A DNA stretch of 64,000 bases from Phormidesmis sp. (GTDB lineage: Bacteria; Cyanobacteriota; Cyanobacteriia; Leptolyngbyales; Leptolyngbyaceae), in NCBI GenBank assembly GCA_965248535.1, contig CBDFJR010000005.1:2240001-2304000 (forward strand). The letters are read 5' to 3'. The notes beneath the pieces are model-generated. The model had not been told where the DNA came from. It saw only the letters and a program-made list of their open reading frames with translations, and did not search any database. How positions within the stretch are numbered: position 1 is the stretch's first letter; every line of letters begins with the position of its first letter. Positions 42,176-61,889 of the stretch are shown piece by piece. Made by a program: the position numbers and the translations under genes.

Positions 42176-42502
42176 TTGGCAACCCGGATGACTGCACAGA
42201 CTTCCCTGAAAGAACTACGCAAACCGCAGAAACATAAACTCAAAGCAGCCGCCAAACAGAGGTTTGGTGGAGCCTGTGCCTATTGTGGGTGCGTTCCTCG
42301 GTTTTTGACCTTGGATCATATTGTGGCTCAATCGAAAGGCGGATTAGATGTGCAGTCTAATCTAGCCGCAGTTTGCCAACGCTGTAATAGAAGTAAAGGA
42401 AGCCGTGCGCTTTGGGAGTGGTGGCAAGCAGATCCCTGCTGGGATGAAGAGCGGGCCATCCAATTTGCCACGATCGTTCTCGTGTGCAAACTTAGAGTAT
42501 GA
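42176..42502 (+). CDS. Small HNH endonuclease
   Basis: CAYCG...TLDHIV..SKGG...NL...CQRCNRSKG. Confidence 0.85.
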   Translation: MATRMTAQTSLKELRKPQKHKLKAAAKQRFGGACAYCGCVPRFLTLDHIVAQSKGGLDVQSNLAAVCQRCNRSKGSRALWEWWQADPCWDEERAIQFATIVLVCKLRV

Positions 42503-48360: not shown

Positions 48361-51285
48361 TTAAAGCTGTTGTCGTGCCATCAGTTGAGCAAACAATCCC
48401 GTTTGATTGGCGAGTTGATTAAAACTGCCCTCCTGCACCACGCGACCACTTTGAAAAACATAAATGCGATCGGCGTTGCGAATCGTGCTGAGACGGTGAG
48501 CGATCGCGATTCGGGTCACCTTTAGACGCTCTAGGCTTTGGCTGACGATCGCTTGAGTGCGATTATCTAAAGCACTAGTCGCCTCGTCAAACAGTAGGAT
48601 TTTGGGTTTTAAGACGAGCGATCGGGCAATCAATAATCGCTGTCGCTGCCCTCCCGAAAGGTTTGTTCCGCCTTCGCTAATCACCGTGTGCATCCCCATG
48701 GGCATCGACTCGATATCCTCAGCAAAGCCAGCCATCCGAGCCGCTTCCCAGGCTTCATCCATCGTGATCAGGGCACCACTAGCGATATTCTCAAACAGCG
48801 AGGCAGAGGTTAGGCGGCTATTTTGCATCACCACGCCTAACTGCCGTCGCACGGCATAAACATCTAGCCCCGCTAAGTCTTGCCCGTCGTAATAGATCGT
48901 GCCAGATTCAGGAACATCAAACCCCAAGAGCAATCGAAATAGGGTTGATTTGCCACTCCCCGAAGCGCCCACAAAGGCGATGAATTCGCCCGGTTCGGCG
49001 CGGATGCTGACATCATCTAAGGTTAAAGGGCCATCGTCACGATATCGAAAAATGGCGTGATCAACGACGACTCGACCCGAAAGCCGACCCGGATCAGCCT
49101 TTTCAGAATTGACTTCGGGCTGGGCTTCTAAAATCGGTTGTGCTCGTTCCCACAGGGGGACAATGTTGAGAACATCGACGATCGTGCTACTTAAACTGGT
49201 CGCTCCACTAATAAAAGTACCAAATGCTGCATTGAATGCTAGAAAGACACCCGTTGATAAACTACCTTGCTGGGATTGTGATTGCTGAAGAAAGCTGGCT
49301 GCAAACCAAAAAATTGCTGCTGTAGTGAATGCAGGCAGAATTTTGTTAATCACCGCCAGAGCATCTTCGATGCCTTGGGTGCTCAACATCCATTTAATTT
49401 GCTGACTATATTGTTTGCCCCAAAATGCAAAGGCGCGAGCTTCGGCCCCAGCAACTCGAAGTTTAGTTACTCCGTTAATTAGTTGTACCATGACTCCAAA
49501 AAGCTGCCCCTGCAATTCTAATAACGGCCGAACTTTACGAAGACTAGAGATTCCTGATATAAGGGTTACGACAATATTAATGAGCGCAACAACGGTTGCG
49601 ATTAACGCGAGTGAAGGACTGTAGTAGAAGAGTAATCCTAGATTTAGAAATGCAAACAAGCTAGTAAAAATACTTCTGAGAACTGTGCTACTCAGCTTTT
49701 GGCGGATTTGACTGATCGCGCTGACTCGTGAGTTGAGATCCCCGATCGAGTATTGCCGAAAGAAAGACGCTTTGAGATTCAACAACCGATCCCAGACGGC
49801 CGATTGAGTCGAAGCATCGGCAAAGGTTTCGACCCGCATAATCGCAAACCCTTGAGCAAGCTGAAACAGCGTGCTGCCAAAAGCAGTTGCCAACAGAGCT
49901 AAGGCAATTTGAACCAATAAGCCACGATTGGCATCCGGGATGGCACTGTCGATTAAAATAGCGGTGGCTTGCGGCGCGATCATGCCCAGCAGCGTGGTCG
50001 CCATGCCTGCCACTAAGACAACTATTAACTCTTTGTAGTGTCCTCGCAGGGCAAATTTTAGCAAGTCGATCGTGGTCAAAACTTTATCAGGCAACGGACG
50101 ATAAAACGTATAGCCTGTTGGGGTGAGCGTCGCGGCACTTTTGGCAGTGACAGGGGTACGAGTTTGCTTGATCGGGTCAACGATCTCATAGTGCGTATCC
50201 GAGACAGGCAGCACCGCAACGGGATGAGTATCGGCCATCGTGTAAGCGAGCATGGCACCACAATCTTTTTTCCACCACTGACCTTGTAGCCCGATCGAGC
50301 GCGTTCGCAGTCGAGATGCCCGTGCGATCGCCTGTAGGGGATCATGGACTCGATTTAGGTCTTCAGACTTGGCAGGCGGGCGAATCGTCACGCCTAACAC
50401 GCGCCCAACGGCACCCGCTGCGATTAACAAGGACTGATCAGGATCGCTGGCTCCTGCTTGAGCCATAACCAACTGCGGAGATTGCAGCAGCGAGGCCAAC
50501 TCGCCCAGCGTTTCCTCCATGACCTGATGATTCAGGTGCTGTCGTTCGTGAAATCGCTGTAATTCTGCGTGAGTTTCTTGCTGGTCTAAAAAATAAAGGC
50601 TTTGCAGCACATAGATCTGAAGTTGAAAAATTCCTAGCAGCAGCGTGTTGGGGTCATCAATCTCAGACGTTGTTAAGCAAGAAAGCTCGATCGTGTCTTC
50701 GGCTTGAAACCACAGATCGGCACTTAAGGGCAACAGTCCCGATTGTGGTGTAAGCAATAGTTCATCAAATCCCATCCAAATCCCACGGCCGCGCTGAATT
50801 TCCACCCAGGACACCAGATCTCGCTGAGGTTGAAAAATCTGTCCATTCGTGAGGGAAAAGTAGCGCACGCCCTCTTCTTGAAACGGCAACGCCGGAGGCG
50901 CGATCGAGGACAGTGTCAATCCAAGTTGCTCAATCCAGCCATCTGCTAATATCAGGGCTTCGCCATTGCCCTCTGCCAAGAAGTCGCGAAAATCGTCGAT
51001 CGAGACTTTTAGCAAATCGGTGTCTGCGATCGCGACTGCAAACAGTTGATAAGGCATCGCTGCAAACTCGCTGCCGATCCCAAATAGTGCTTGTCTCGAT
51101 CGGGTTGTAAATAAGTAGCGACGAGTTCCTTCGGCAACGCCTTCTTTAATAGGAATCGCAAACACGGCTAGGGAACCCGACTTAACGATCCACACCGTTT
51201 GAGTGTCATCGAGAACAATCGATTCGTTGCCTTTTAGCTGACGATACTCTCCGGTTAATCGGATGCTCTGAATTTGATCCAACAT
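48361..51285 (-). CDS. NHLP-type bacteriocin export ABC transporter, permease/ATPase (no active C39)
   Basis: GASGSGKST, LSGGQRQR, DEATSALD; N-terminal cNMP-like region; W W..DCG motif. Confidence 0.92.
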   Translation of the reverse strand: MLDQIQSIRLTGEYRQLKGNESIVLDDTQTVWIVKSGSLAVFAIPIKEGVAEGTRRYLFTTRSRQALFGIGSEFAAMPYQLFAVAIADTDLLKVSIDDFRDFLAEGNGEALILADGWIEQLGLTLSSIAPPALPFQEEGVRYFSLTNGQIFQPQRDLVSWVEIQRGRGIWMGFDELLLTPQSGLLPLSADLWFQAEDTIELSCLTTSEIDDPNTLLLGIFQLQIYVLQSLYFLDQQETHAELQRFHERQHLNHQVMEETLGELASLLQSPQLVMAQAGASDPDQSLLIAAGAVGRVLGVTIRPPAKSEDLNRVHDPLQAIARASRLRTRSIGLQGQWWKKDCGAMLAYTMADTHPVAVLPVSDTHYEIVDPIKQTRTPVTAKSAATLTPTGYTFYRPLPDKVLTTIDLLKFALRGHYKELIVVLVAGMATTLLGMIAPQATAILIDSAIPDANRGLLVQIALALLATAFGSTLFQLAQGFAIMRVETFADASTQSAVWDRLLNLKASFFRQYSIGDLNSRVSAISQIRQKLSSTVLRSIFTSLFAFLNLGLLFYYSPSLALIATVVALINIVVTLISGISSLRKVRPLLELQGQLFGVMVQLINGVTKLRVAGAEARAFAFWGKQYSQQIKWMLSTQGIEDALAVINKILPAFTTAAIFWFAASFLQQSQSQQGSLSTGVFLAFNAAFGTFISGATSLSSTIVDVLNIVPLWERAQPILEAQPEVNSEKADPGRLSGRVVVDHAIFRYRDDGPLTLDDVSIRAEPGEFIAFVGASGSGKSTLFRLLLGFDVPESGTIYYDGQDLAGLDVYAVRRQLGVVMQNSRLTSASLFENIASGALITMDEAWEAARMAGFAEDIESMPMGMHTVISEGGTNLSGGQRQRLLIARSLVLKPKILLFDEATSALDNRTQAIVSQSLERLKVTRIAIAHRLSTIRNADRIYVFQSGRVVQEGSFNQLANQTGLFAQLMARQQL

Positions 51286-51287
51286 GA

Positions 51288-53561
51288 TTAGGTCTCCTGA
51301 AGGGCTTCGCCCTCGCTGCGAATCAGTTGCAAATATTTGCCTTCGATCTGCTGTAGCTCGTCATGGGTGCCTCGCTGCACAACCTTGCCCCGATCGAAGA
51401 CAATAATTTCGTCACAATCTCGAATAGTGCTTAATCGATGCGCCACAATAACACAGGTACAGCCTCGTTCTCGCAGCTTCTGATCGACGAGTTTCTCCGT
51501 TTCAGAATCGAGAGCACTAGTCGCTTCATCCATCACGAGAATGGTCGGATTGTTGACTAAAGCACGGGCAATTTCTAATCGTTGTCGTTGCCCACCGCTT
51601 AAATTAGTGGCTCCTTCTGCGAGGTCAGCGCTATAGCCTCCCGGCATCGACAGCACGACATCCTGAATGGCAGCATCTTTGCAAGCGCGCACCAAATTGC
51701 TAAACGGAACGGTGGAATCCCACAGGGTGAGATTGTCTCGCACACTGCCTGCAAACAGCGAGATATCTTGCTCAATCAGGGCCATTGAATAGGTGATCTG
51801 CGATCGGGGAATCTGAGATCTCAGTTGACCATCGAACAGGATCTCTCCTGCCCACGGCTCATACAATCCACAAATCAGTTTGGCAACTGTTGATTTGCCC
51901 GACCCACTTCCGCCTACCAATGCGACTCGCTGACCCGGCTTGAGCGACAAACTCAAGTCTTCAATCAACGGAGGCGCAGAGCGGTTATAGCCAAAGGTGA
52001 GGTGACGCAGATCGATATAGCCTTGCAGTCGCACCGTTGCAGCCGAGAGTTCATGAATCGGTGGAGCACTGATTTCTGTCTCAACAACGGGGTCGATCGA
52101 GTTCCGCAACACGTCATCTAATCGACCGAGATTGCCTTCCATTTCCTGAAGTTCACCCGCCAGACCCACAAGGTTATTCACAGGCTCTAAAAATCGCTGC
52201 ATCAATGCTTGAAAGGCAATCAGCATTCCAATACTCAGAACGCCATCCATCACGCGCAGTCCGCCGACAACCAGTAATAGCATCGACGTAATCGCGGTCA
52301 AAAATGACGGCAATACTCCTAAGGTTTGATTGGTTGTATCCATTTCTTGCCGAGCATTGATCGCTTTGGCATAGTAGCCTGCCCAGCGCGAGAAGAATTC
52401 TGACTCTAACCCCGATGCCTTCAGCGTTTCCATACTCTGAAGTCCTGAAATAGACACGCCGCTGACTTTGCCTTGTTCTTGCATCAGCCGCAGATTGGCA
52501 TCTACGCGCTGCCGTGACACCCATCGCCAGACAGAGACATTGACGATCACAAAGGCAATCCCGATCGAGGTCAGCACGACATCGTATTGCAACATCACAA
52601 TGGCATAGAAAACCACCGTGACGGCAGAAATCACCGTTGTTGCTAATCGCCCTGAGAGCAAGCTTGCTAGGCTGTCATTCAGCCGCACTCGACTGCTGAT
52701 TTCTCCTGCAAATCGCTGGTCATAAAAGCTGACAGGCAGCCGTAAAATATGCCAGAGAAATCGGCTAGACATTCCAACTGCTAACTTAATTCTCATGCGG
52801 CGCAGAAATTTAAGCTGAAGCAGCGTTAAAAATCCGCTTAACACTGCGGTGAAAATGATGCCGAGAATTAAGGGACGCAGCCAATCGTCTCGTCCTTCGA
52901 TTAAAACATTATCAATAAACGCTTGGGAGAATGCTGGCATAGCTAACCCAGGAATCACTAACAGCAATCCTGCGATCACACAATATATTAATGCCCCGAT
53001 CGAACTCTGCAATCGATCCCACAACGCAAGCGTCAGGCTCGGTTTACGTCCTCCAGGTTGAAACTCTAACCCCGGCTCACCGACCAACACCACCCCTGTA
53101 AACGACTGATCGAATTCTGCTTGGGTGACGGTGCGCGGGCCAGTTGCCGGATCATTGAGATAAACACTATCTTTGTGAAACCCTTCAACCACCAAGAAGT
53201 GATTAAAGTTCCAGAAAACAATATAGGGACACTCTAATTTGCGTAACCCATCTAAATCGACCTTAAAGCCCTTTGCCTGCAATCCATAGCTGCGAGCCGC
53301 GTTGAGAATGTTAGACGCTTTGCTGCCGTCGCGAGAAACGCCGCAGGCTTGACGCAATTCGGCGAGGGGAACAATCCGATTGTGGTATCCCAGCACAATG
53401 CCCAATGCTGCTGCACCACATTCGACGGCCTCCATTTGCAAGAGAGTCGGAGTTTTACGGCGACGATTACTCCGAAGGGGGAACTGTTTTGCAACGGGGC
53501 GACTCACCCTCTGTTGAAGGTGTCTCAAGCTCCGCCCAATATAGCCTTGAAGTTGCTGCAT
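51288..53561 (-). CDS. NHLP-type bacteriocin export ABC transporter, C39 peptidase/permease/ATPase
   Basis: QMEAVECGAA (Cys), NHFLVV (His), LNDP (Asp), GGSGSGKST. Confidence 0.94.
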   Translation of the reverse strand: MQQLQGYIGRSLRHLQQRVSRPVAKQFPLRSNRRRKTPTLLQMEAVECGAAALGIVLGYHNRIVPLAELRQACGVSRDGSKASNILNAARSYGLQAKGFKVDLDGLRKLECPYIVFWNFNHFLVVEGFHKDSVYLNDPATGPRTVTQAEFDQSFTGVVLVGEPGLEFQPGGRKPSLTLALWDRLQSSIGALIYCVIAGLLLVIPGLAMPAFSQAFIDNVLIEGRDDWLRPLILGIIFTAVLSGFLTLLQLKFLRRMRIKLAVGMSSRFLWHILRLPVSFYDQRFAGEISSRVRLNDSLASLLSGRLATTVISAVTVVFYAIVMLQYDVVLTSIGIAFVIVNVSVWRWVSRQRVDANLRLMQEQGKVSGVSISGLQSMETLKASGLESEFFSRWAGYYAKAINARQEMDTTNQTLGVLPSFLTAITSMLLLVVGGLRVMDGVLSIGMLIAFQALMQRFLEPVNNLVGLAGELQEMEGNLGRLDDVLRNSIDPVVETEISAPPIHELSAATVRLQGYIDLRHLTFGYNRSAPPLIEDLSLSLKPGQRVALVGGSGSGKSTVAKLICGLYEPWAGEILFDGQLRSQIPRSQITYSMALIEQDISLFAGSVRDNLTLWDSTVPFSNLVRACKDAAIQDVVLSMPGGYSADLAEGATNLSGGQRQRLEIARALVNNPTILVMDEATSALDSETEKLVDQKLRERGCTCVIVAHRLSTIRDCDEIIVFDRGKVVQRGTHDELQQIEGKYLQLIRSEGEALQET

Positions 53562-53563
53562 GA

Positions 53564-55006
53564 TTAGTAGACTCCACTCCACGATCGCAGAATTGGCAAC
53601 ACAAACGAAATCGGCGATTGTTCAGAGACTTTGACCCGCACTGAGGTCGTCGTGCCGGAGGTGATTTCGGTGTCAGGGCCCTTTGACGACGACCAGCGAA
53701 ACTGGCTTTTGGTCGTGGGGTCTGGCTGAAGCTCTGCAAATACTTGAATCTGTGCATCTTTAGTAGTCAACCCCTGCAAAACTTCAGCACCGCCTACAAC
53801 ACTCGATGCACCCTCTTTGGTCACTGGAAAGGCAGACACGTTGGTCACGGTGGCCACAATGCCCCCAAAGCGTTCTCGCTTGACCGTGGAGGGCGTAACT
53901 TGCAGTTCCATCCCTTTCTGGATTTTTTTGCCCTCACTGACGGGGAAAAACATCACCCCAACTAGCTTGCTATTAGCATCTTGAGCCTCAATTGTGCCCA
54001 TGCGTCCACCCTCTTGCAAGGTTTGTCCTGGCACGACGACAACTTCTAATACTCGCCCATCAAAGCTACTGGTGACTTGACTATTGCCTTTGAGTTGCGA
54101 TTGCAATTGCACGATCGCGCGTTCGGTCTCTTGAATTTCTTTTTGACGATTCGTTGCAATGGCTGAATCTTGTTCGGCTTGCCCTGCTGATCTTGTATCC
54201 AAAGTCGATAATTGAGCCTGTAAATCTTTACCCGCATTGACGTTTTCTAGAAACTGTCGCTGGGCATCGGTTTCTTTAACATTCAACTGTTTCAGTTCCG
54301 ATTCAATTTCACCGATTTTAGACTTGCTATTGAGAAATTCTTGCTGTGCCTGAAGCACGGTGTCGCTCGAAACCGCGCCCTCTCGACGCAACTGCTGCCG
54401 CAGTTCAAACCGTTGTTGAAAGGTGGGCACTAATTCTCGCGTCGTCTGCAATTGTTGCAGCAAGGTTTGCCGCTCTTGCCGAATCGAGTCTAATCCTTTC
54501 TCCCTCAAAATCGGCGCGATCGCTTGCGTTGTCTCTAAGCTTTGCAGCAGTGCTTGCCGCTGTTGTTGAAGAGCACCTTTATCTAAAACCGTTCGCTGAA
54601 ATTGCAGCGAGGTGGCTGTGCGATCTTGCTCTTGCAGTTGACTGAGTTTTCCCCGCGCCAAATTCAGCTTTTCTTGCAGATCAGTTTGGTCGATCGTGGC
54701 GATTATCTGCCCTTTTGTGACCCGATCGCCTGGATGAATAGTCAAACTCAAAATCTTCCCAGAACTAGGAGACTGAAATGCGGCAACTTTGCTTGGAAAC
54801 ACGAGCACTCCCTGCCCTGCAATGGTAATGGGAATGCGACCGAAAACACTCCAGATCAAGCCAACAGCAATCAAAGATCCCATCGCAGCTAACGGAATCC
54901 ATTTCTTAGGCTGAACGACCTGCATCAGTTGATCAAGCCGCTCTGGAGACGATAAGCGATCGAGCGCTTCTTTTCGGAACAGGTTGCTTTTGGGAGTCGT
55001 GACCAT
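53564..55006 (-). CDS. NHLP bacteriocin system secretion (HlyD-family membrane fusion) protein
   Basis: FRKEALDRLSSPERLDQL, single TM, long coiled coil, RERFGGI, WSSSKGP. Confidence 0.92.
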   Translation of the reverse strand: MVTTPKSNLFRKEALDRLSSPERLDQLMQVVQPKKWIPLAAMGSLIAVGLIWSVFGRIPITIAGQGVLVFPSKVAAFQSPSSGKILSLTIHPGDRVTKGQIIATIDQTDLQEKLNLARGKLSQLQEQDRTATSLQFQRTVLDKGALQQQRQALLQSLETTQAIAPILREKGLDSIRQERQTLLQQLQTTRELVPTFQQRFELRQQLRREGAVSSDTVLQAQQEFLNSKSKIGEIESELKQLNVKETDAQRQFLENVNAGKDLQAQLSTLDTRSAGQAEQDSAIATNRQKEIQETERAIVQLQSQLKGNSQVTSSFDGRVLEVVVVPGQTLQEGGRMGTIEAQDANSKLVGVMFFPVSEGKKIQKGMELQVTPSTVKRERFGGIVATVTNVSAFPVTKEGASSVVGGAEVLQGLTTKDAQIQVFAELQPDPTTKSQFRWSSSKGPDTEITSGTTTSVRVKVSEQSPISFVLPILRSWSGVY

Positions 55007-55070
55007 GATTCCATTCCAATAACTGAATTTTATAGTTAGCAATTAAGTCAACGTGATTTCCAGTGTTAAC

Positions 55071-56168
55071 TCAATTGCCTCGAATCTGCTTGAGCATCCA
55101 ATCAAATCGAGTGCCCGCTAGCGTTACCTGAGCCAAAAACCCAGAACTCAACTCATCCTCATAGGTGAAGCGCTCATCTAAGGATTGACCCGCGCTATAG
55201 GTGATTCTGCCGTAGCCCAGCCGATTGATAATGCCCTGCTGTTTGTCCGCCAACAAAATCGCCAACACCCGATAAAATCGAGCCGCAAACCCCTGATCGT
55301 GCAGCAGCTTTGCAGCTAGGTGCCAGCGTGGAATTGACAGCACTGTGGCATCGTCGATCGCGCGAATCGTCATCGCCGGAGGACTCGCTTCCACAAAGGG
55401 CGTTTCGCCTACCATGTCACCCCGCGATAACTTGGCAAACTCTCGCTCGACTTGATCAGTGTTTTCCAAACTCGAAAACGCACGCATGAGCGGATTGCTG
55501 ACATCCTCCGCGATCGCTGCTGCCATTTTGCCATCTAGCAGAATGTGCAGTGCATCAACAGGTCTTCCAGCATGAACTAAGACCGATCCCGCCGGAATTC
55601 TTGTAGCAGTGCCCGCAGCAATCATCCAACCGATATCACTATCGTTTAATTCTGCAAACGTAAAGAGAATTTCTCGAAGTTGAGGCTGACACAAAACCAC
55701 TGTGCTGTGACCGATTTGGCTCACCATCTGCTCTAATCGGTGGGCTAACAGCACCGCGATCGCCCGATAGAAATGAGCCGCAAACGGGATGTCAGTCTGC
55801 ATTTTCTCGATCAACTGCTGCTGCGGAACCACCAAGACCAGCGACTTTCTGACGGCTTTAACGGTAGTAGATGATTGATGAGAGGCTAAGAACGGCATCT
55901 CACCCACGACTTCTCCGCTGGCGAGTCTGGCGATTTCCCGCCCCGACAGTTCACCCCCTTCGAGGGCAGCAAACGCTCGCCCGATCGGGTTATCGTCAGC
56001 CTGAGCTACTGAAACGGTCAAGGCACCATCCAACAAAATATAGAGAGCATTCACGGGCATTCCTTGGCGGATCAGAGTGGTGCCAGCCGCAATTTCTTCT
56101 CTCCGGCCCGTTGCTAAGATCCAGTCAATATCGCAATTACTCAATTCCTTCAATAGAACTTCTGTCAT
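55071..56168 (-). CDS. Tandem cyclic-nucleotide-binding-domain protein associated with bacteriocin-type transport
   Basis: Two repeats EL.D.DI.W...GE.PF...FAA.FYR..A.LLA; start MTEVLL after RBS GAGG. Confidence 0.88.
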   Translation of the reverse strand: MTEVLLKELSNCDIDWILATGRREEIAAGTTLIRQGMPVNALYILLDGALTVSVAQADDNPIGRAFAALEGGELSGREIARLASGEVVGEMPFLASHQSSTTVKAVRKSLVLVVPQQQLIEKMQTDIPFAAHFYRAIAVLLAHRLEQMVSQIGHSTVVLCQPQLREILFTFAELNDSDIGWMIAAGTATRIPAGSVLVHAGRPVDALHILLDGKMAAAIAEDVSNPLMRAFSSLENTDQVEREFAKLSRGDMVGETPFVEASPPAMTIRAIDDATVLSIPRWHLAAKLLHDQGFAARFYRVLAILLADKQQGIINRLGYGRITYSAGQSLDERFTYEDELSSGFLAQVTLAGTRFDWMLKQIRGN

Positions 56169-56373
56169 AGTTTGATGTCCTCTTGGGTTGCGAACGGGCG
56201 AAGAATGGGAACAACTCATTTGAATCATTTGAACAGTAGGCACCCCCAGCAATCTCGATCAGTTCTTGAACCCACGCTATGGATTAATCGCACGGTGTGG
56301 TTTCCATTAGCATGGTGTGTTCTGGTTAGGTTGTTTGCTTGGTTCAATCAATCTGATCAATTAATCTGATCAA

Positions 56374-56673
56374 TTAATCTGAACCTTCGATCGCGGCTGC
56401 ATTTCCCAGCAATCCGCCCAGAAATTCCAGATCCTCCGCACTCGCATCTGTAATGACGATTTGCAGCCCTGCCGACTCTATGGTTTCTGCCGAAAACGCA
56501 GATTTTGAAGAGCCACACCCTGCCCCGCCAGTCTCTTGAGAAAGCGAGACATTGGACTGCCGAAAAAAGGCTGCGTTTAACCGCAGATTAAGACCGCCTG
56601 ATACATCATCTAGCTCCTGATCGGATAGCTCGGCAAACGTCGGATCGGTGGGCTTTATTTCGTGGTCTGACAT
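56374..56673 (-). CDS. Double-glycine-leader peptide precursor 4 (CTB-like; 72-aa core)
   Basis: FAELSDQELDDVSGG leader; RBS AAGGAG. Confidence 0.88.
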   Translation of the reverse strand: MSDHEIKPTDPTFAELSDQELDDVSGGLNLRLNAAFFRQSNVSLSQETGGAGCGSSKSAFSAETIESAGLQIVITDASAEDLEFLGGLLGNAAAIEGSD

Positions 56674-56732
56674 AGTTGCTCCTTTAAGTCGTTTGGTAAG
56701 GGCACAGCCGAGCCATGCCCCCTCGAAATCGA

Positions 56733-56951
56733 TTATTTACCCGTTTCTTCTTCTTCAAAGATTGAGGCGCTAAAGTCGTCTGTCGATTGGAATAGAGTGC
56801 TGCGAACTCCATTGCGATTGGCTTCAAGCGTGCTGATCTGCACATCTTGTAACTCTGTGGTAGAAGCCGCTGCTCTACGATGTGCGCCGCCCGCAACAAT
56901 ATCGAGTTCTTCAGAAGTCATTTCCATGACGATGTGGGATTCTGTATTCAT
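56733..56951 (-). CDS. Double-glycine-leader peptide precursor 3 (50-aa core)
   Basis: EMTSEELDIVAGG leader; RBS AGGAG. Confidence 0.88.
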   Translation of the reverse strand: MNTESHIVMEMTSEELDIVAGGAHRRAAASTTELQDVQISTLEANRNGVRSTLFQSTDDFSASIFEEEETGK

Positions 56952-57018
56952 TGAGATCTCCTAGGATAATGGGTAGATAGTTGAGTCAGTTTCAGTGAAT
57001 TTAGAGCACAGGCAGACC

Positions 57019-57231
57019 TTAGTGGCCCGTTTCGGTAAACTCAACGATCGCAGCTTTAAAGTCGTCGGTTTGTTGAATGTTGGTGCTGTGAACTCCGTCG
57101 CGATTGGAACTGAGGTTGCTCAGTTGCACATCAACCAGTTCTTGGGTTGCAGCCGCTGCTGCTCGTCTTGCACCGCCTGCAATGATATCGAGATCTTCAG
57201 CAGACAATTCTACGGGCTTGTTGTTAGACAT
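57019..57231 (-). CDS. Double-glycine-leader peptide precursor 2 (50-aa core)
   Basis: ELSAEDLDIIAGG leader; RBS AAGGAG. Confidence 0.9.
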   Translation of the reverse strand: MSNNKPVELSAEDLDIIAGGARRAAAAATQELVDVQLSNLSSNRDGVHSTNIQQTDDFKAAIVEFTETGH

Positions 57232-57283
57232 GATGGTTCTCCTTAAGTGTTGTTGGATTGCAAAGAGTAATGAGAGTTCAGAG

Positions 57284-57314
57284 AGAGGGGATTGATCCTA
57301 AAATAATCCCCTCT
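57284..57314 (-). terminator. Intergenic stem-loop between precursors 1 and 2
   Basis: AGAGGGGATT / AATCCCCTCT. Confidence 0.45.
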
Positions 57315-57340
57315 ATAAATAGATGACCCAGACAGTAGAA

Positions 57341-57556
57341 CTATTTGCCTGTCTCGGTAAACTCAACGATCGTGGCTTTAAAGTCGTCGGTTTGTTGAAT
57401 GTTGGTGCTGTGAACTCCGTCGCGATTGGAACTAAGATCACTCAGTTGCACATCAACCAATTCTTGGGTTGCAGCCGCTGCTGCTCGTCTTGCACCACCT
57501 GCAACGATATCAAGTTCGTCAGCAGACATTTCCATGGGCTTGTTATTATCAGACAT
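57341..57556 (-). CDS. Double-glycine-leader peptide precursor 1 (50-aa core)
   Basis: Start MSDNNK after AAGGAG; EMSADELDIVAGG; near-identical to precursor 2. Confidence 0.9.
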   Translation of the reverse strand: MSDNNKPMEMSADELDIVAGGARRAAAAATQELVDVQLSDLSSNRDGVHSTNIQQTDDFKATIVEFTETGK

Positions 57557-57949: not shown

Positions 57950-59014
57950 ATGTTAAATCGATTTAAACTTGCAACCAAATTCACCCTATTGCTATCGCTG
58001 GTGTTTGTCGGTGCGATCGTGGTTAGTGGGGTCGCGTTCTCTCACGTCCTAGAACAGAAAGCCGAATCTGAAATTAGCTACCGTAGCCAAATTTTAGTAG
58101 AAACTATGAACTCGGTGAGAGCCTTCACAAACAAAAATATTAGCCCACTGCTCATGCCGATGGTAGAGACTCAACCGACCTTTGTTCCTGAAACGATTCC
58201 CAGTTTTGCAGTCAGAGAGGTGTTTGAAAATCTTCGCAAAAATGAAGACTATAAAGACTTTTTCTATAAAGATGCGCTGCTGAATCCAACCAATTTAAGA
58301 GATAAAGCAGATGAGTTTGAAGCCAGTCTCACTAAGCGATTTCAGAGCGAACCAGACCTTAAAAATATCTCTGGTTTTCGAGATTCTGTGGGTGAAAAAC
58401 TATTCTATAGCGCTCGTCCATTTTCAGTCAAAAATGCAACGTGTTTGCGCTGCCACAGCACACCAGGCGTAGCTCCAAAAAGTCATGTTGCCAGCTATGG
58501 GTCAGAAAATGGCTTTGGGTGGAAGCTGCACGAAGTTTTAGGTAGCCAGGTGATTTATGTTCCTGCGAGTCAAGTATTTAATGATGCCAATCGAGCATCT
58601 TTGTTAATCATGACGATCTTCGTTGGCATTTTTGCACTCGTCATTTTGTTGATTAACTATTTGCTCAAGCGAAATGTGCTGCAACCGATTAAACCGATGG
58701 CACAACTCGCCCAAAAAATTAGTATGGGTGAGGTTAGCGCTGAAGAAGCGGCAGAGTTTGAACATGAAAAGCTAGCCCCGATCGTCAAACGCAATGATGA
58801 ATTAGGTCAATTGGCACGAGTGTTTCAACGGATGGTGCATGAAATATATGCCCGTGAGCAACAACTCAAACAACAATTGCAAAAACTGCGTCTTGAAATT
58901 GACGATAACAAGCGAGCGCGTCAAGTCGCTGAGATTGCCGAATCAGAATCGTTTCAAAAGCTCCAAGAAGAAGCAAAAGCCATGAGACATAAACGCGATG
59001 CTGACCACGAATAA
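57950..59014 (+). CDS. Membrane protein with c-type-heme (DUF3365/Tll0287-like) domain, HAMP and coiled-coil tail
   Basis: 2 TM helices; NPTNLRDKADEFE; CLRCH; DELGQLARVFQRM; no kinase or cyclase domain. Confidence 0.88.
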   Translation: MLNRFKLATKFTLLLSLVFVGAIVVSGVAFSHVLEQKAESEISYRSQILVETMNSVRAFTNKNISPLLMPMVETQPTFVPETIPSFAVREVFENLRKNEDYKDFFYKDALLNPTNLRDKADEFEASLTKRFQSEPDLKNISGFRDSVGEKLFYSARPFSVKNATCLRCHSTPGVAPKSHVASYGSENGFGWKLHEVLGSQVIYVPASQVFNDANRASLLIMTIFVGIFALVILLINYLLKRNVLQPIKPMAQLAQKISMGEVSAEEAAEFEHEKLAPIVKRNDELGQLARVFQRMVHEIYAREQQLKQQLQKLRLEIDDNKRARQVAEIAESESFQKLQEEAKAMRHKRDADHE

Positions 59015-59079
59015 GCACGATTTCTAATCATCCTTTTTTGAGTTAGTTCCACTAGTTGTTTTACCCTTGAGGATTCACC

Positions 59080-59889
59080 GTGTCTGAAATTATCTCGATC
59101 CATTCATTTCGTGGCGGAACAGGTAAGTCAAACGTAACGAGCAATCTTGCTACTCTCCTCGCTCGCTCTGGAAAACGAGTTGGCGTGGTCGATACCGACA
59201 TTCAATCACCCGGAATTCACGTCTTATTTGGTCTTGAAGAAGATCGCATTCGCTACACGCTGAATGATTATTTATGGGGTCGTTGCACTATTGAGGAAGC
59301 CGTTTATGAGGTCACTCCTACTCTCAAGCAGAAACCATCTTTTTTTGGTCGCCAAGGTAGTGTTCATCTGATTCCTTCTAGCATTAAGATGAGCGATATC
59401 TCTCGCATTCTGCGCGAAGGCTATGATGCTCGGTTGCTCAATGATGGACTGCGTGATCTCGTGCGTCGCTTAAAGTTAGATTATCTTCTGATCGATACTC
59501 ATCCCGGTATTAACGAAGAGACACTATTGTCGATTATTCTCTCAGATACCTTTATCTTGATTCTGCGACCAGACAAACAAGACTATCAGGGAACAGCCGT
59601 CGCGATCGACGTTGCCCGTAAGTTAGAAGTGCCTAAGATGCTGCTGGTTATCAACAAAGCATTGCCCTCTCTAGACTTTAAAGAATTAAAGCTGCGAGTC
59701 CAAAACACCTACGAAGCTCCGGTTGCAGGGATTCTTCCAGTCTGTGAAGAGATGTTTGATCTGGGGAGCAGCGGGATCTTCTGTCTGCGCTATCCCGATC
59801 ATCCCTGGACGCGAGCAGTTAACGAAATCGTGCAGCAAATCACAGGTTCCAGTTCACTTAAACAATCGAACGGGTTTTTGTTGAAGTAA
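59080..59889 (+). CDS. MinD/ParA-family ATPase
   Basis: SFRGGTGKS deviant Walker A, DTDIQSPG, IDTHPG. Confidence 0.9.
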   Translation: MSEIISIHSFRGGTGKSNVTSNLATLLARSGKRVGVVDTDIQSPGIHVLFGLEEDRIRYTLNDYLWGRCTIEEAVYEVTPTLKQKPSFFGRQGSVHLIPSSIKMSDISRILREGYDARLLNDGLRDLVRRLKLDYLLIDTHPGINEETLLSIILSDTFILILRPDKQDYQGTAVAIDVARKLEVPKMLLVINKALPSLDFKELKLRVQNTYEAPVAGILPVCEEMFDLGSSGIFCLRYPDHPWTRAVNEIVQQITGSSSLKQSNGFLLK

Positions 59890-60783
59890 CGTCACCGTCT
59901 CCCGCGTATCGCCTGGGAAAATGGCTCTCACCCGCTCGACTACAGAAATCATGTAGGTGTAGTCTGCAACAGGCGCATTGGTCACAAACTCCGCTTCTTG
60001 AGCAACTACAGACGGCGTTTCGCTTAAAATCTTGCGAATCGATTCTTGAGCCTTACTCTCGATCGTAGGACTGATCAACACCGCCCCAGTCGGCACTGTG
60101 TGAACATCCGTCAACACAATCCGCAAATTAAGGGGAGTAACTTGACTTTTGTAGGTCTCAAATTCTTCTAGCGACACGGCACCAACGGCTGCTTTGCCTT
60201 GAGAAACCGCTTCTAAAATCGCCTTGGGCGTGGGAGGAAAGATCAGTTCAGCCAGCGTTAACCCATACAAATTAAAAATCGGAAGGTAATATCCTGTGGC
60301 TGAACCTGGCTTTCCAAGCGCGACTGACTTACCCGCGATCGCGCCAATCTCTCGAATCGGGCTATCATCTCGCACGACCAGCACTGAGCGCAACTCCTGC
60401 ACCCCAATCATCGGAAAGAGAGGCCTATATTGATGGTGCGCGATCGCGATTGCGGCTAACCCTGGCGGTGCAAAAACCAGCGACCACTCCTGACGTTGAA
60501 TTCTCTCTAAAGCCCTGCCTTCGTTGAGAGCAGGTTCTAACTCTACCAGCGACTGAGTTTTTTCACTGAGATAGTGTTTGAAGCGATCGTATCGATCAAG
60601 AGATTGACGGCCCTCTTCATAGCTGACGGTTCCTACCACCAGCGATCGCCGTTGCGGCGAAGGAAGTGTCGCTTGGCAGGAAGACAACAACAATAAACCG
60701 AGAAACCCACGACGAGAAAGCCTGAGAGGTAAGCCTGAACTCAACAATCTAATTGCTCTGTGGGCAGTTGCGTTAGTCATCAT
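59854..60783 (-). CDS. PhnD-like phosphate/phosphonate-type substrate-binding lipoprotein
   Basis: SRRGFL..LLSSC Tat/lipobox; SVLVVR.DSPI, GSATGYYLP. Confidence 0.8.
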   Translation of the reverse strand: MMTNATAHRAIRLLSSGLPLRLSRRGFLGLLLLSSCQATLPSPQRRSLVVGTVSYEEGRQSLDRYDRFKHYLSEKTQSLVELEPALNEGRALERIQRQEWSLVFAPPGLAAIAIAHHQYRPLFPMIGVQELRSVLVVRDDSPIREIGAIAGKSVALGKPGSATGYYLPIFNLYGLTLAELIFPPTPKAILEAVSQGKAAVGAVSLEEFETYKSQVTPLNLRIVLTDVHTVPTGAVLISPTIESKAQESIRKILSETPSVVAQEAEFVTNAPVADYTYMISVVERVRAIFPGDTRETVTLLQQKPVRLFK

Positions 60784-60946
60784 GTCTTTACTCTGCTAGT
60801 TGCCGATCTAAAAGAATGTCTGAGAAGTCTTTCATCGTTATTCCGCCTCAATAGTGCCCCGCCCGAAATCTACTTTAGGGAGAGCTAGCAGCAAAGAGGC
60901 ATTAAGCGTTTTGTGGCGTTGCTAAATCACGGGATGAATGGTTCCA

Positions 60947-61171
60947 TAAATCCCCCAATGCTGAGGTTCAAAGTTCCCCAGAGTGAGGGACTGAGGGGGC
61001 GAGAGGATTAACAACTTGCACAGATTCATCGGTTTTTCAAGCGCTAAAAGCCCCAGTTAACCAGACCTCCTGCATCAATAAAATGCTGACAGAAATTCCC
61101 CAATTCTAGGGGAACCGGAGTTCAAAATTCTCCAGAATTGGGGAGCATGTCCAGATTCGCGCAGGAGGGTT
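60947..61171. repeat. Dispersed-repeat pair plus MITE-like element (AGACCTCCTGCA...GCAGGAGGGTT)
   Basis: Same repeat family as 3265-3345 and 19505-19676. Confidence 0.6.
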
Positions 61172-61184
61172 ATTCTGGCGATGA

Positions 61185-61889
61185 TCAGTCAGTTATTCCT
61201 AGCCTAGTGGTGAGAGTCTGTTTTTCGCTTGACGTTGCATTCGCATAAATGGCAAGCTGCGATCGGTTTTTCAAATTAAGGCGGTTGAGAATACTCGTGA
61301 CGTGAGTTTTAACAGTGCCTTCTGTAATGTATAGCTGTTGAGCAATTTCACGATTGGTCGCACCTACAGCTAGCAGGCGCAATACTTCTTGTTCTCGTGC
61401 AGTCAAGTCTGATGATTTGAGAGAAGAAGAGCTTTGATGGGGTGAGTCTGCGGGCGCGTCAGTTGATAGAAGTTTGTCAAACAACCCGGGCCCAAACTGA
61501 GTATAGCCATAATATCCAAAGCGGATGGCATCGGCTAATTCTTTTGAGGGCATATCTTTGAGTAAATAGCCTTTTGCCCCTGCCCGCATTGCGCCTGCTA
61601 GATAAGAATCATCATCAAAGGTGCTTAAGATCAGAACTTTGATATTAGGAAAGTTTTGCATAATATGTTTTGTAGCAGTTCGTCCGTCCATTTCGGGCAT
61701 CCGAATATCCATAAGCACCACATCGGGTTGCAGGGCGGCGACTAGTTCTAGAGCGACTTTGCCATTCTCAGCATCGCCCACCACTTCTAAGTCAGATTCT
61801 TGTTCTAGCATGGCTTTGAGTCCCTGACGAATCAGGCTTTGGTCATCAACAATCAACAGACGAATGGTGGGGGAGTCATCGCTTTTCAT
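61185..61889 (-). CDS. NarL/LuxR-family response regulator
   Basis: VDDQ, MDIRMP, GYLLKD, LTAREQEVL..TNREIA..TVKTHV. Confidence 0.93.
   Translation of the reverse strand: MKSDDSPTIRLLIVDDQSLIRQGLKAMLEQESDLEVVGDAENGKVALELVAALQPDVVLMDIRMPEMDGRTATKHIMQNFPNIKVLILSTFDDDSYLAGAMRAGAKGYLLKDMPSKELADAIRFGYYGYTQFGPGLFDKLLSTDAPADSPHQSSSSLKSSDLTAREQEVLRLLAVGATNREIAQQLYITEGTVKTHVTSILNRLNLKNRSQLAIYANATSSEKQTLTTRLGITD

Follow-up and report, generated by a model that had tools for sequence, protein, structure and literature searches.

The locus and its genes

The window, a stretch of 64,000 nucleotides from a Phormidesmis sp. genome, contains a cluster in which four precursor genes (P1 to P4) are followed, all on the minus strand and in that order, by genes for a cNMP-fold protein, an HlyD-type adaptor, a C39-peptidase ABC transporter and a second ABC transporter. 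The features discussed here are the following, where CTB stands for cyanobacterial tandem bacteriocin.

57341..57556, minus strand: P1, major CTB precursor, 71 aa; 21-aa GG leader and 50-aa core (57344-57493), predicted to be a hairpin; NF038167 33.2 bits
57284..57314, minus strand: stem-loop between P1 and P2, without a U tail; -15.4 kcal/mol, z about -2, a weak candidate
57019..57231, minus strand: P2, major CTB precursor, 70 aa; core 57022-57171, modelled as a single hairpin with strands 2-23 and 26-47
56733..56951, minus strand: P3, divergent last major CTB precursor, 72 aa; core 56736-56885
56698..56724, minus strand: stem-loop between P3 and P4; -17.4 kcal/mol, z about -2, a weak candidate
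56374..56673, minus strand: P4, single-copy minor CTB precursor, 99 aa; predicted hairpin plus C-terminal amphipathic helix; NF038167 42.3 bits
55071..56165, minus strand: TIGR03896 protein with two cNMP-fold domains (PF00027 twice); 302 bits (cut-off 161)
53564..55006, minus strand: HlyD-type adaptor, TIGR03794; 397 bits (cut-off 156)
51288..53582, minus strand: C39-peptidase ABC transporter, TIGR03796; 1167 bits (cut-off 853)
48361..51285, minus strand: second ABC transporter, TIGR03797; 1048 bits (cut-off 709)
57950..59014, plus strand: Tll0287-like (CxxCH haem motif) and HAMP membrane sensor, divergent from the cluster and co-conserved with it
59080..59889, plus strand: MinD/ParA-like ATPase, divergent from the cluster and co-conserved with it

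All four leaders follow the pattern E-[LM]-x-x-x-[ED]-L-D and end in GG, and AGGAG or AAGGAG lies 5-7 nt 5' of each precursor start. The Ser/Thr-rich cores of P1 to P4 have net charges of -3, -3, -4 and -6, contain 0, 0, 0 and 1 Cys, and have calculated unmodified masses of about 5407, 5385, 5516 and 7250 Da; their GRAVY values are -0.46 to -0.72 in P1-P3 and span -0.72 to +0.16 across all four. The first-pass annotation had described tandem GG-leader precursors with strong ribosome-binding sites and acidic, Cys-poor cores, followed on the same strand by the export genes, and these descriptions held, the last through NCBIfam scores above cut-off. The cores of P1 and P2 are 94% identical, and that of P3, about 60% identical to both, shares 72% identity with the last major of a relative locus. 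P1 and P4 pass the NF038167 cut-off of 32 bits; P2 (31.9, E 1e-7) and P3 (23.6, E 4e-5) fall below it, with cores 60-94% identical to that of P1. In an Atlas search the clusters nearest to the precursors were those of PF28158, and the best score outside this family, 0.82, was a chance-level lead. A second CTB array lies on another contig (C2), and the claim that the exporter is dedicated to these four peptides is therefore not established.

A scan of the locus for promoters and terminators gave no excess over shuffles. The P1-P2 stem-loop is a possible, weakly indicated mRNA-stabilising element, and the P3-P4 stem-loop may, on similarly slight grounds, lower P4 and transporter mRNA relative to that of the majors. 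Hairpins of -12 or better occur in 12 of 26 major-to-P4 spacers versus 12 of 79 major-to-major spacers, which is weak evidence.

The Cys, His and Asp motifs of the C39 domain are intact, as are the ABC motifs of both transporters. The second transporter has no C39 Pfam match and carries a degenerate N-terminal cNMP-fold domain with a weak CAP_ED match (E 3.7e-4). A TolC-like match was found elsewhere in the genome (C5:1.62 Mb). The divergent sensor and MinD-like gene pair was present in 23 of the 33 loci with at least 6 kb of upstream DNA, and apart from this pair and the exporter no gene recurs in most loci.

The cNMP-fold protein had been taken as a sign of cyclic-nucleotide control, which our data do not support. 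The Arg that binds phosphate in the cNMP cassette motif was found in none of the 79 cassettes from 41 TIGR03896 orthologues (the pattern missed 3 first domains) and in none of those read from 19 further proteins, several of which the pattern missed, whereas 4 of 5 other cNMP domains of the window genome, taken as controls, retain it. Some exporters that adjoin CTB cores also have no TIGR03896 gene. Judged by these sequences, the TIGR03896 protein probably assists the transporter rather than acting as a cAMP switch.

Neither a LanM, YcaO or radical-SAM gene nor an immunity gene was seen in the cluster by ORF and domain searches (for immunity genes, among ORFs of at least 50 aa), in agreement with the first-pass annotation. 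A genome-wide search for trans-acting RiPP enzymes, in a genome 99.8% complete, returned no LanM (control genomes likewise gave no match), no LanC (3 of 4 other cyanobacterial genomes positive), no YcaO (controls positive 5/14) and no SPASM domain (controls positive 9/14); 22 ordinary radical-SAM domains and one Nif11-leader ORF lie elsewhere in the genome, outside the cluster. No conserved tailoring enzyme was present among 144 neighbour representatives. These results suggest that the cores are unmodified.

Fold of the cores and couplings between hairpin faces

AlphaFold2 predicted the P2 core to be one uninterrupted, bare antiparallel hairpin of about 22+22 residues (pLDDT 90.9) that has no core of its own, and P4 to be a hairpin followed by a helix at 52-61 (pLDDT 76.3). 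We then analyzed couplings in an alignment of 184 CTB relatives with an effective depth of about 104, in which one cluster supplies 60 of the rows. Mutual information peaks on the hairpin register, a result matched by 0 of 100 shuffles, and pseudolikelihood couplings at i+j=51 have a mean z of 2.09, with no other register above 0.67; the model and the couplings rest on overlapping sequences. Taken together, these data predict that the core fold is one long bare beta-hairpin. Of 70 majors, 65 keep the same arm length; P1-P3 of the window lack the family F10 and have one arm shorter by one residue.

Fold searches with the P2 and P4 models gave no significant match, none with a Foldseek E of 0.001 or below. 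The top VIA-align matches, all weak, were for the most part hairpins that a subunit contributes to a multi-subunit barrel, collar or ring, and the best match to the stem of a beta-pore-forming toxin was not significant (Z 4.5, rmsd 5.5, 50 aligned). No natural fused multi-hairpin protein was found among 8000 longer candidates, which is weak evidence.

The remaining couplings link opposite faces, the base half of one with the tip half of the other, at a constant offset of 13-15 residues. This offset-13/15, base-even class makes up 5.2% of the 840 off-hairpin pairs, yet accounts for 9 of the top 20, and for 10 of 20 both in 77 library representatives alone and in majors alone. We noticed the class in the ranked list and tested it afterwards. 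Its strength was reached by 0 of 3000 position permutations, also when face parity was kept, and it ranked first in 12 of 12 disjoint halves of the clusters as well as in 53 rows drawn one per cluster. Conservation is higher on the two faces predicted to be buried (2.3 and 2.7 bits of entropy, versus 3.4 and 3.4), and these faces carry less charge. In 2x2 physico-chemical tests on the stagger pairs, 2 of 5 were significant; the hydrophobic and F10 pairings were not. Fold-back of a single chain was rejected as a source of the off-hairpin couplings, its pattern being an ordinary one (1001 of 3000 permutations). Because a single chain of 50 residues could not make the staggered contacts, these couplings between aligned positions imply that hairpins stack head-to-tail in a shingled arrangement.

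P4 differs from the majors in ways that bear on such stacking. In all 30 loci with a P4-type gene, the order was majors (0-9), exactly one P4 and a Pro/Tyr class (0-2). P4-type peptides keep the docking face, vary the tip and add a helix, and their arm is of full length in 17 of 41 and shorter in 22 of 41. P4 stood alone in 3 loci, and in 8 loci with upstream DNA the exporter had no adjacent peptide. From this family comparison, P4 is likely the terminal cap or surface anchor of a polymer.

A proposed polymer and its alternatives

We propose, with moderate confidence and from models and sequence comparison, that a group V exporter secretes four CTB hairpin peptides which assemble outside the cell, head to tail, as a two-layer beta fibre, tube or sheet, and that P4 is its cap or anchor. 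The first-pass annotation had suggested secreted structural subunits, several similar majors and one longer minor, and this reading gains support because the hairpin is bare, the couplings are staggered and the gene order is fixed with exactly one P4-type gene. The so-called CTB bacteriocins are thus probably building blocks rather than antibiotics. That they form a novel class of extracellular filament, double-walled and made of roof-tile hairpins at 14-residue steps rather than in-register cross-beta, with a helix-bearing cap or anchor and cassette-swapped majors, is a more tentative proposal, to which we give slightly less than an even chance. Among the points in favour of the polymer are transcript levels in Nodularia, where four CTB-annotated genes account for about 0.9% of transcripts and for 2.4-3.1% under phosphorus starvation, with their exporter at 0.008-0.013% in replete medium; against it, the expressed cluster adjoins a different exporter type from that of the window, and a second Nodularia CTB cluster is barely expressed.

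C39 transporters cleave after GG and export their substrates via HlyD and TolC. The cores would be cut after GG by the C39 domain and exported through HlyD and a TolC encoded elsewhere. Outside, neighbouring chains would pack with opposite faces in contact, hairpin positions 2-12 (the base half) of one chain against positions 15-25 (the tip half) of the next, and each subunit would add a step of about 14 residues, or about 4.6 nm at 3.3 A per beta residue, while free edge strands would pair sideways. P4 would offer the same docking face with a dispensable tip, so that nothing would stack beyond it and the polymer would stop there; its amphipathic helix would hold the polymer at the envelope or seal its end. 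As the weakest step, the polymer may serve adhesion, aggregation or matrix formation, by analogy with EbfG. Spinae were considered as the product and set aside; spinin is reported at 42 kDa, with a pitch of 11.6 nm.

The couplings say nothing about purpose, and could fit a weapon polymer or a closed ring as well. The same shingled polymer might be a contact weapon, forming surface fibres or beta-tubes like Cdz or MccAB1, with the majors as an arms-race cassette. Cdz and MccAB1 are leader peptides secreted by type I systems that both aggregate and kill, and the toxin stems stand at the top of the non-significant fold matches. Majors also differ sharply between strains whose exporters are more than 80% identical, subtypes being swapped, and with a core dN/dS of about 0.5 an arms race fits too, though this value, from non-independent pairs filtered at 60% core identity, does not discriminate between the readings. 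We nevertheless judge a weapon unlikely: no small membrane immunity gene was recognised in the window cluster, and no gene besides the exporter and the sensor/ATPase pair recurs in most loci, in a neighbour scan that covered mainly clusters of 200 aa or more. Nor do the acidic, polar cores show the hydrophobic or cationic membrane-active character of class II bacteriocins, microcins or Cdz; there is no lipid-facing strand face, and best-face hydrophobicity at the hairpin tip is at least 0.7 in 4% of 121 rows and -0.27 to 0.31, with 4-5 charges, in P1-P3. The copies in one locus are nearly the same in sequence, a hint of dosage.

It is rather improbable that the hairpins form small closed oligomers, for instance a ring in which they overlap tangentially, or that they work as soluble bacteriocins or signals. 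Subunits arranged as a screw may also close to a ring, and couplings do not distinguish a ring from an open fibre. Annotators and one study (PMC9846622) treat CTB peptides as allelopathic bacteriocins, and phosphorus starvation induces CTB genes in Nodularia. However, a bare 22+22 hairpin has no core of its own, a form that occurs once per locus and can do without its tip is easier to explain as the end of an open polymer, and a literature search found no activity for CTB peptides.

The stagger could also be an artefact of alignment or phylogeny, with hairpin-prone peptides aggregating non-specifically like the EbfG amyloid and P4 acting as a surface adhesin. A shallow alignment, a post hoc class and the large subfamily cluster would favour this; we find it very doubtful, given that the signal survives disjoint halves and permutations that keep all phylogenetic noise, that face-wise conservation backs it independently, and that tree simulations reached at most 0.23 versus the observed 1.12 (0 of 25, under a lenient null in which strong hairpin coupling deflates other z values). 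Modification of the precursors in trans, as lanthipeptide, azole or radical-SAM products like the NHLP/Nif11 precursors that use the same exporter, is scarcely credible: the exporter families were defined with NHLP/N11P precursors, often near LanM or cyclodehydratases, and the cores and the Nif11-leader ORF would suit it, but no LanC/LanM, YcaO or SPASM domain was found in a genome searched with positive controls in three of four cases, P1-P3 lack Cys, the short leaders are not of NHLP/N11P type, and CTB cores travel with different exporter types without a shared enzyme.

As for the wider bearing of the polymer of stacked hairpins, it is common practice to class cyanobacterial double-glycine arrays among bacteriocin or RiPP clusters, yet their products often escape metabolomics. 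If CTB peptides are polymer subunits, a family that 23 of the 251 genomes sampled from the class carry, and that can reach about 3% of the transcripts of a bloom former, would turn from antibiotic to building material. The EbfG lesson would extend to an unrelated fold, cyanobacterial surface structures that are still genetically uncharacterised would gain a candidate gene set, and the peptides would amount to a minimal protein material that assembles itself and brings its own terminator. The architecture is predicted in such detail, to single residue pairs and a repeat of 4.6 nm, that it is testable with a 50-residue synthetic peptide and cryo-EM.

Comparison with known systems

The gene set and cluster type were already known; new here is the structure, that is, the predicted hairpin, the stagger and the division into majors and cap. 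All four precursors match the CTB family (NF038167/PF28158), two above cut-off. The family is a bioinformatic label, and these structural traits apparently lie outside its description; a literature search that covered mostly journals outside subscription turned up no work on the function or structure of CTB or group V peptides.

The cluster type, whose earlier publication the first-pass annotation leaves unmentioned, is group V of Wang, Fewer and Sivonen (2011, PMC3140520), exemplified by Nostoc punctiforme Npun_R1804-R1814. Group V shares with the window cluster a protein of two CAP_ED domains only, HlyD, a short C39 transporter, an extra CAP_ED-bearing ABC transporter without the peptidase, tandem precursors and the lack of LanM. 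The precursor lengths given there (82, 99, 79, 85 and 79 five times) match the pattern of the Nostoc loci that we retrieved. The paper files the precursors under the NHLP family of modified-peptide precursors and, in the text consulted, gives no function, structure or subunit hierarchy. The three window genes for TIGR03794/03796/03797 all pass the cut-offs of the NHLP-type exporter (Haft, Basu and Mitchell 2010, PMC2887384), but their cargo is short-leader CTB instead of NHLP/N11P, in a genome without a LanC, YcaO or SPASM match.

In Synechococcus elongatus, EbfG1-3 form amyloid, EbfG4 is on the surface, and matrix building has been shown (PMC4997328, PMC9981879). The window cluster resembles EbfG/PteB in having GG-leader peptides, three alike and one different, with predicted C39 cleavage and export, and by this analogy it likely works in the same way. 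The link to EbfG drawn in the first-pass annotation stands as this analogy only; homology is not detectable. EbfG1-4 have no NF038167 match, their cores are cationic (+2 to +4) where those of the window are acidic, and 20-196 and 68-236 of 300 shuffles score as high against the CTB core and P4 profiles, respectively. The S. elongatus control genome had no NF038167 match and no TIGR03896 above cut-off, and the EbfG exporter belongs to group III of Wang et al., without a second ABC or two-CAP_ED gene. Peptides of two further loci (L100 and L106) looked like EbfG by eye; against the CTB profile, their cores scored no better than shuffles.

CdzC/CdzD of Caulobacter (PMC5380434) and MccAB1 of Acinetobacter (PMC13188072) are likewise type I-secreted leader peptides that form surface aggregates or fibres, as proposed for CTB. 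They differ in that their cores are hydrophobic, of glycine-zipper or GAV type, that they come with an immunity gene and that killing by them is proven; the CTB cores are polar, acidic and predicted to be hairpins, and no gene for immunity was seen. Curli, which are exported by Sec/CsgG, combine a bulk subunit, CsgA, with a minor nucleator or anchor, CsgB, in a beta-solenoid of short repeats. The major/minor division is the likeness to CTB, and an analogy with curli has also been drawn in the EbfG preprint; the difference is that each CTB subunit would be one long hairpin, stacked face-to-back with a stagger.

Family and gene content of the cluster

The eight genes described in the first-pass annotation, four double-glycine (GG) precursors followed by a cNMP-domain protein, HlyD, a C39-peptidase ABC transporter and a second ABC transporter, were found in that order on the minus strand (48361-57556). 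The precursors (three majors, P1-P3, and the longer, single-copy P4) have GG leaders of 20-27 residues and, as claimed, strong ribosome-binding sites and acidic, Cys-poor cores (for P1 to P4, net charge -3, -3, -4 and -6, and 0, 0, 0 and 1 Cys). Curated cut-offs of TIGR03896, TIGR03794, TIGR03796 and TIGR03797 were all passed by the downstream genes, and the C39 peptidase and ATPase motifs of the exporter were intact. With NF038167, the model of the "cyanobacterial tandem bacteriocin" (CTB) family, P1 and P4 scored above cut-off; P2 (0.1 bit short) and P3 (23.6) did not. Judged by sequence, the window peptides are members of the CTB family. Stem-loops 3' of P1 and P3 might perhaps raise major relative to minor transcripts. 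Elsewhere in the window, a small ORF (42176-42502, plus strand) has two CxxC pairs and looks HNH endonuclease-like by eye.

In architecture, the cluster belongs to group V as defined by Wang et al. 2011 (PMC3140520), and its exporter corresponds to the NHLP-linked cassette described by Haft et al. 2010 (PMC2887384), going by the available text of both papers. Precursor lengths in the Nostoc loci that we fetched agree with the nine precursors listed there for the Nostoc punctiforme group V example. In the available parts of the cyanobacterial literature searched, CTB genes were named in only two papers, both times as annotations, and Npun locus tags were found only in the Wang paper; the cluster is of a published kind without known function in that literature.

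We compared 40 loci retrieved via the TIGR03896 protein. Exactly one P4-type gene was present in 30 of them and two in none; of the ten P4-less loci, 2 were at contig edges and 8 had no adjacent GG peptide. The majors (0-9 copies) all preceded P4 in 30/30 loci. They were near-identical within a locus, yet strains with exporters >80% identical to the window's carried different subtypes. A third GG-peptide class, acidic and Pro/Tyr-rich, followed P4 as 1-2 genes in 21/30 loci (L027:9602-9829 and 20 others); it is not a CTB hairpin and is absent from the window. Scytonema/Brasilonema-type loci (L046-L052, L054) retained the complete exporter but had no GG peptide beside it, and most carried an RsbR/RsbX-like partner-switching module upstream. 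A DUF3455 protein, also absent from the window, lay 3' of the second ABC transporter in 15 loci (e.g. L032:17992-18606).

An independent NF038167 pull gave matches in 23/251 genomes of the class. Among 20 such loci, 9 were group V clusters, in 9 a short C39 transporter was the neighbour and TIGR03896 was absent, and 2 were left unclassified. The P4 profile matched 5/301 genomes of the phylum; in each of the four besides the window's own, a P4-type gene stood immediately upstream of TIGR03896. The window's own genome carries a second array (contig C2:2435336-2437735) of three CTB peptides and one longer, with an L-x-Y-L-E leader different from the window's, a PpiC-like gene and no transporter. 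Against the CTB core profile, the cores of this array scored above shuffles, and it is probably exported via the long C39 transporter and HlyD at C5:2201769-2206783. Because the group V, short-transporter and C2 contexts differ, the CTB core is a module that depends neither on the type of exporter nor on any of the enzymes observed. In two short-transporter clusters, a longer peptide with a seemingly amphipathic tail (L087:5239-5565, L089:4660-4956) is possibly a P4 equivalent, with marginal profile support (3/300 shuffles).

Predicted hairpin fold and staggered couplings

Searching 1.84 billion representatives with a profile gave 177 matches, of which the best 150 were used; 23 leader-only or truncated matches and long proteins were removed before classifying. 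Mutual information peaked at the hairpin register (0/100 shuffles). In 226 aligned cores, pseudolikelihood coupling gave i+j=51 a mean z of 2.09 (other registers <=0.67), and 10 of the top 30 pairs lay on this register, spanning 6-45 to 23-28. AlphaFold2 on 55 cores predicted strands 2-23 and 26-47 for the P2 core (pLDDT 90.9, pTM 0.44). On 24 cores it predicted for P4 the same hairpin plus a helix at 52-61 (pLDDT 76.3), amphipathic in most orthologues (median moment 0.52; window's P4 0.32). Solved structures gave no significant match to the fold; the best VIA-align rows (Z up to 4.5) were in most cases hairpins that a subunit contributes to a barrel, collar or ring of several subunits.

We also analyzed the off-hairpin couplings in 184 unique cores (effective depth 104), taking x as a residue's distance along the hairpin. 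The strongest were 28-41, 8-23, 30-45, 19-45, 23-41, 6-30, 25-39, 6-19 and 26-41. They paired x=6-12 with x=19-25 at a difference of 13 or 15, the base always on the even face and the tip always on the odd, in all four strand combinations. This stagger class makes up 5.2% of 840 pairs, yet supplied 9 of the top 20, with mean z of 1.05 and 1.19 against <=0.14 for 34 other offset/face classes. Since the pattern was seen before it was tested, the nulls took the best class each time: no permutation of x reached it (0/3000, parity kept or not). A tree simulation, a lenient null, reached <=0.23. When the cores were halved by 45%-identity cluster, the class ranked top in 12/12 halves; it did so also in 53 single representatives. 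In an independent test, the two faces predicted to be buried showed higher conservation and fewer charges than the other two. Of five tests made at residue level on stagger pairs, 41-28 (p 0.012) and 45-19 (p 0.0001) reached significance; hydrophobic and F10 pairings did not. A constant-sum fold-back within the chain was rejected, its best class being reached by 1001/3000 permutations.

A constant difference implies parallel translation, opposite faces imply face-to-back packing, and segments separated by two or three residues allow no S-bend within one chain. For these reasons, we infer a contact from chain to chain, whether in an open screw or a closed ring, with ~14 residues per step. Covariation, which supplies this geometry, makes staggered stacking between chains quite probable.

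P4 may occupy the end of such a stack. The base-face residues F10, I/T39, S41, A43 and Q45 are retained in P4-type cores (21 rows parsed), and the hairpin is full-length in 17/41 and shorter in 22/41; in the majors, arm length is fixed in 65/70. Because the docking face is kept and the tip lost, P4 with its helix is likely to be a cap or envelope anchor. Exported hairpin cores would thus stack staggered into a polymer with P4 at its end. We lean towards this full model, in which hairpins shingle into a polymer that ends in a cap or anchor subunit, by a narrower measure than towards the stacking itself. Applied to the CTB family as a whole, this reading is new and testable, and we did not find it in print.

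Candidate regulators

The cyclic-nucleotide control first proposed was not supported by the TIGR03896 protein itself: the phosphate-binding Arg is missing from both domains, in 79/79 cassettes read from 41 orthologues, and present in 4/5 control cNMP domains of the window's genome. Canonical cAMP/cGMP control thus appears unlikely, and control by another ligand is conceivable. TIGR03896 adjoins Gly/Ala-rich peptides of another kind in L077 and is missing from short-transporter CTB loci L087, L091 and L096; by its gene neighbours, it tracks the exporter, not the cargo. Two further gene pairs lie beside the cluster:

57950-59889, plus strand: Tll0287-like haem-motif/HAMP sensor without kinase domain, and MinD-like ATPase, divergent to the cluster
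59854-61889, minus strand: phosphonate-binding-protein homologue and LuxR/NarL-type response regulator

The sensor/ATPase pair accompanies the cluster in 23/33 loci with enough upstream DNA (in L047 it is found downstream). Of the 10 loci without it, 9 also lack adjacent majors. The pair is a likely candidate for regulating the system. The LuxR/NarL-type regulator recurs near the cluster in 12/40 loci and the phosphonate-binding protein in 2/40 (plus L092 and L100). This recurrence is of interest next to the finding that P starvation induces CTB genes in Nodularia.

Function and comparison with known systems

The genome-wide search for modifying enzymes (5.03 Mb, 99.8% complete) found no LanM, LanC, YcaO or SPASM domain; control genomes rang for LanC, YcaO and SPASM, and none for the LanM model. 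From 55 loci (three of them repeats), 589 neighbouring ORFs formed 229 groups, of which 144 representatives were scanned with Pfam, the core genes, three transporter fragments and most groups <200 aa being set aside. The scan revealed no lanthionine, YcaO or radical-SAM domain. Stray enzymes were not conserved (2OG-Fe oxygenase in 3 related loci; GNAT, cupin, P450 and methyltransferase in single loci). Around the 20 NF038167 loci, 48 of 86 unassigned neighbours were scanned, giving only kinase-domain cross-hits with lanthipeptide synthetase models, far below cut-off. The genome also holds a lone Nif11-leader ORF (C5:834260-834607), with no modifying enzyme found. A recent preprint, in its available part, proposes that oligomeric cyanobacterial peptides are widespread via covalent lanthipeptide cross-links.

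The proposal that the peptides are structural subunits gained support from gene dosage, from the polar, acidic hairpins without a lipid-facing side, and from the lack of any immunity gene recognised among cluster ORFs of >=50 aa. We also counted high expression in Nodularia for this role: according to the available data, one array reaches ~0.9% of length-corrected transcripts (2.4-3.1% when P-starved), although it has another exporter type and is CTB by annotation, and a second array is nearly silent. Such a polymer may also kill neighbours, as do fibres in the accessible parts of PMC5380434 and PMC13188072; the majors swap as cassettes between strains and dN/dS is near 0.5, but the same lack of a lipid-facing side and of a recognised immunity gene would argue against killing.

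The likeness to EbfG may hold for mode of action, and no homology was detected. The four ebfG genes (locus L109; system described in PMC4997328 and a Frenkel preprint, both available in part) have lengths that agree, allowing for start-codon choice, with Table S3 of Wang et al.; they include the published EbfG2 hotspot, and a source gives the protein name. EbfG1-4 cores did not beat shuffles against the CTB and P4 profiles, EbfG1-4 gave 0 matches to NF038167, and their cores are cationic whereas CTB cores are acidic. Ala/Gly-rich GG peptides of 48-50 residues at L100:9552-12556 and L106:9617-10542 score on NF038167 but not on the core profile; by eye they are like the EbfG1-3 C-terminal half and might link the two systems. 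EbfG candidates in Anabaena are described in the available text of PMC12267927. By this analogy, EbfG is likely what the CTB system works like, rather than what it is.
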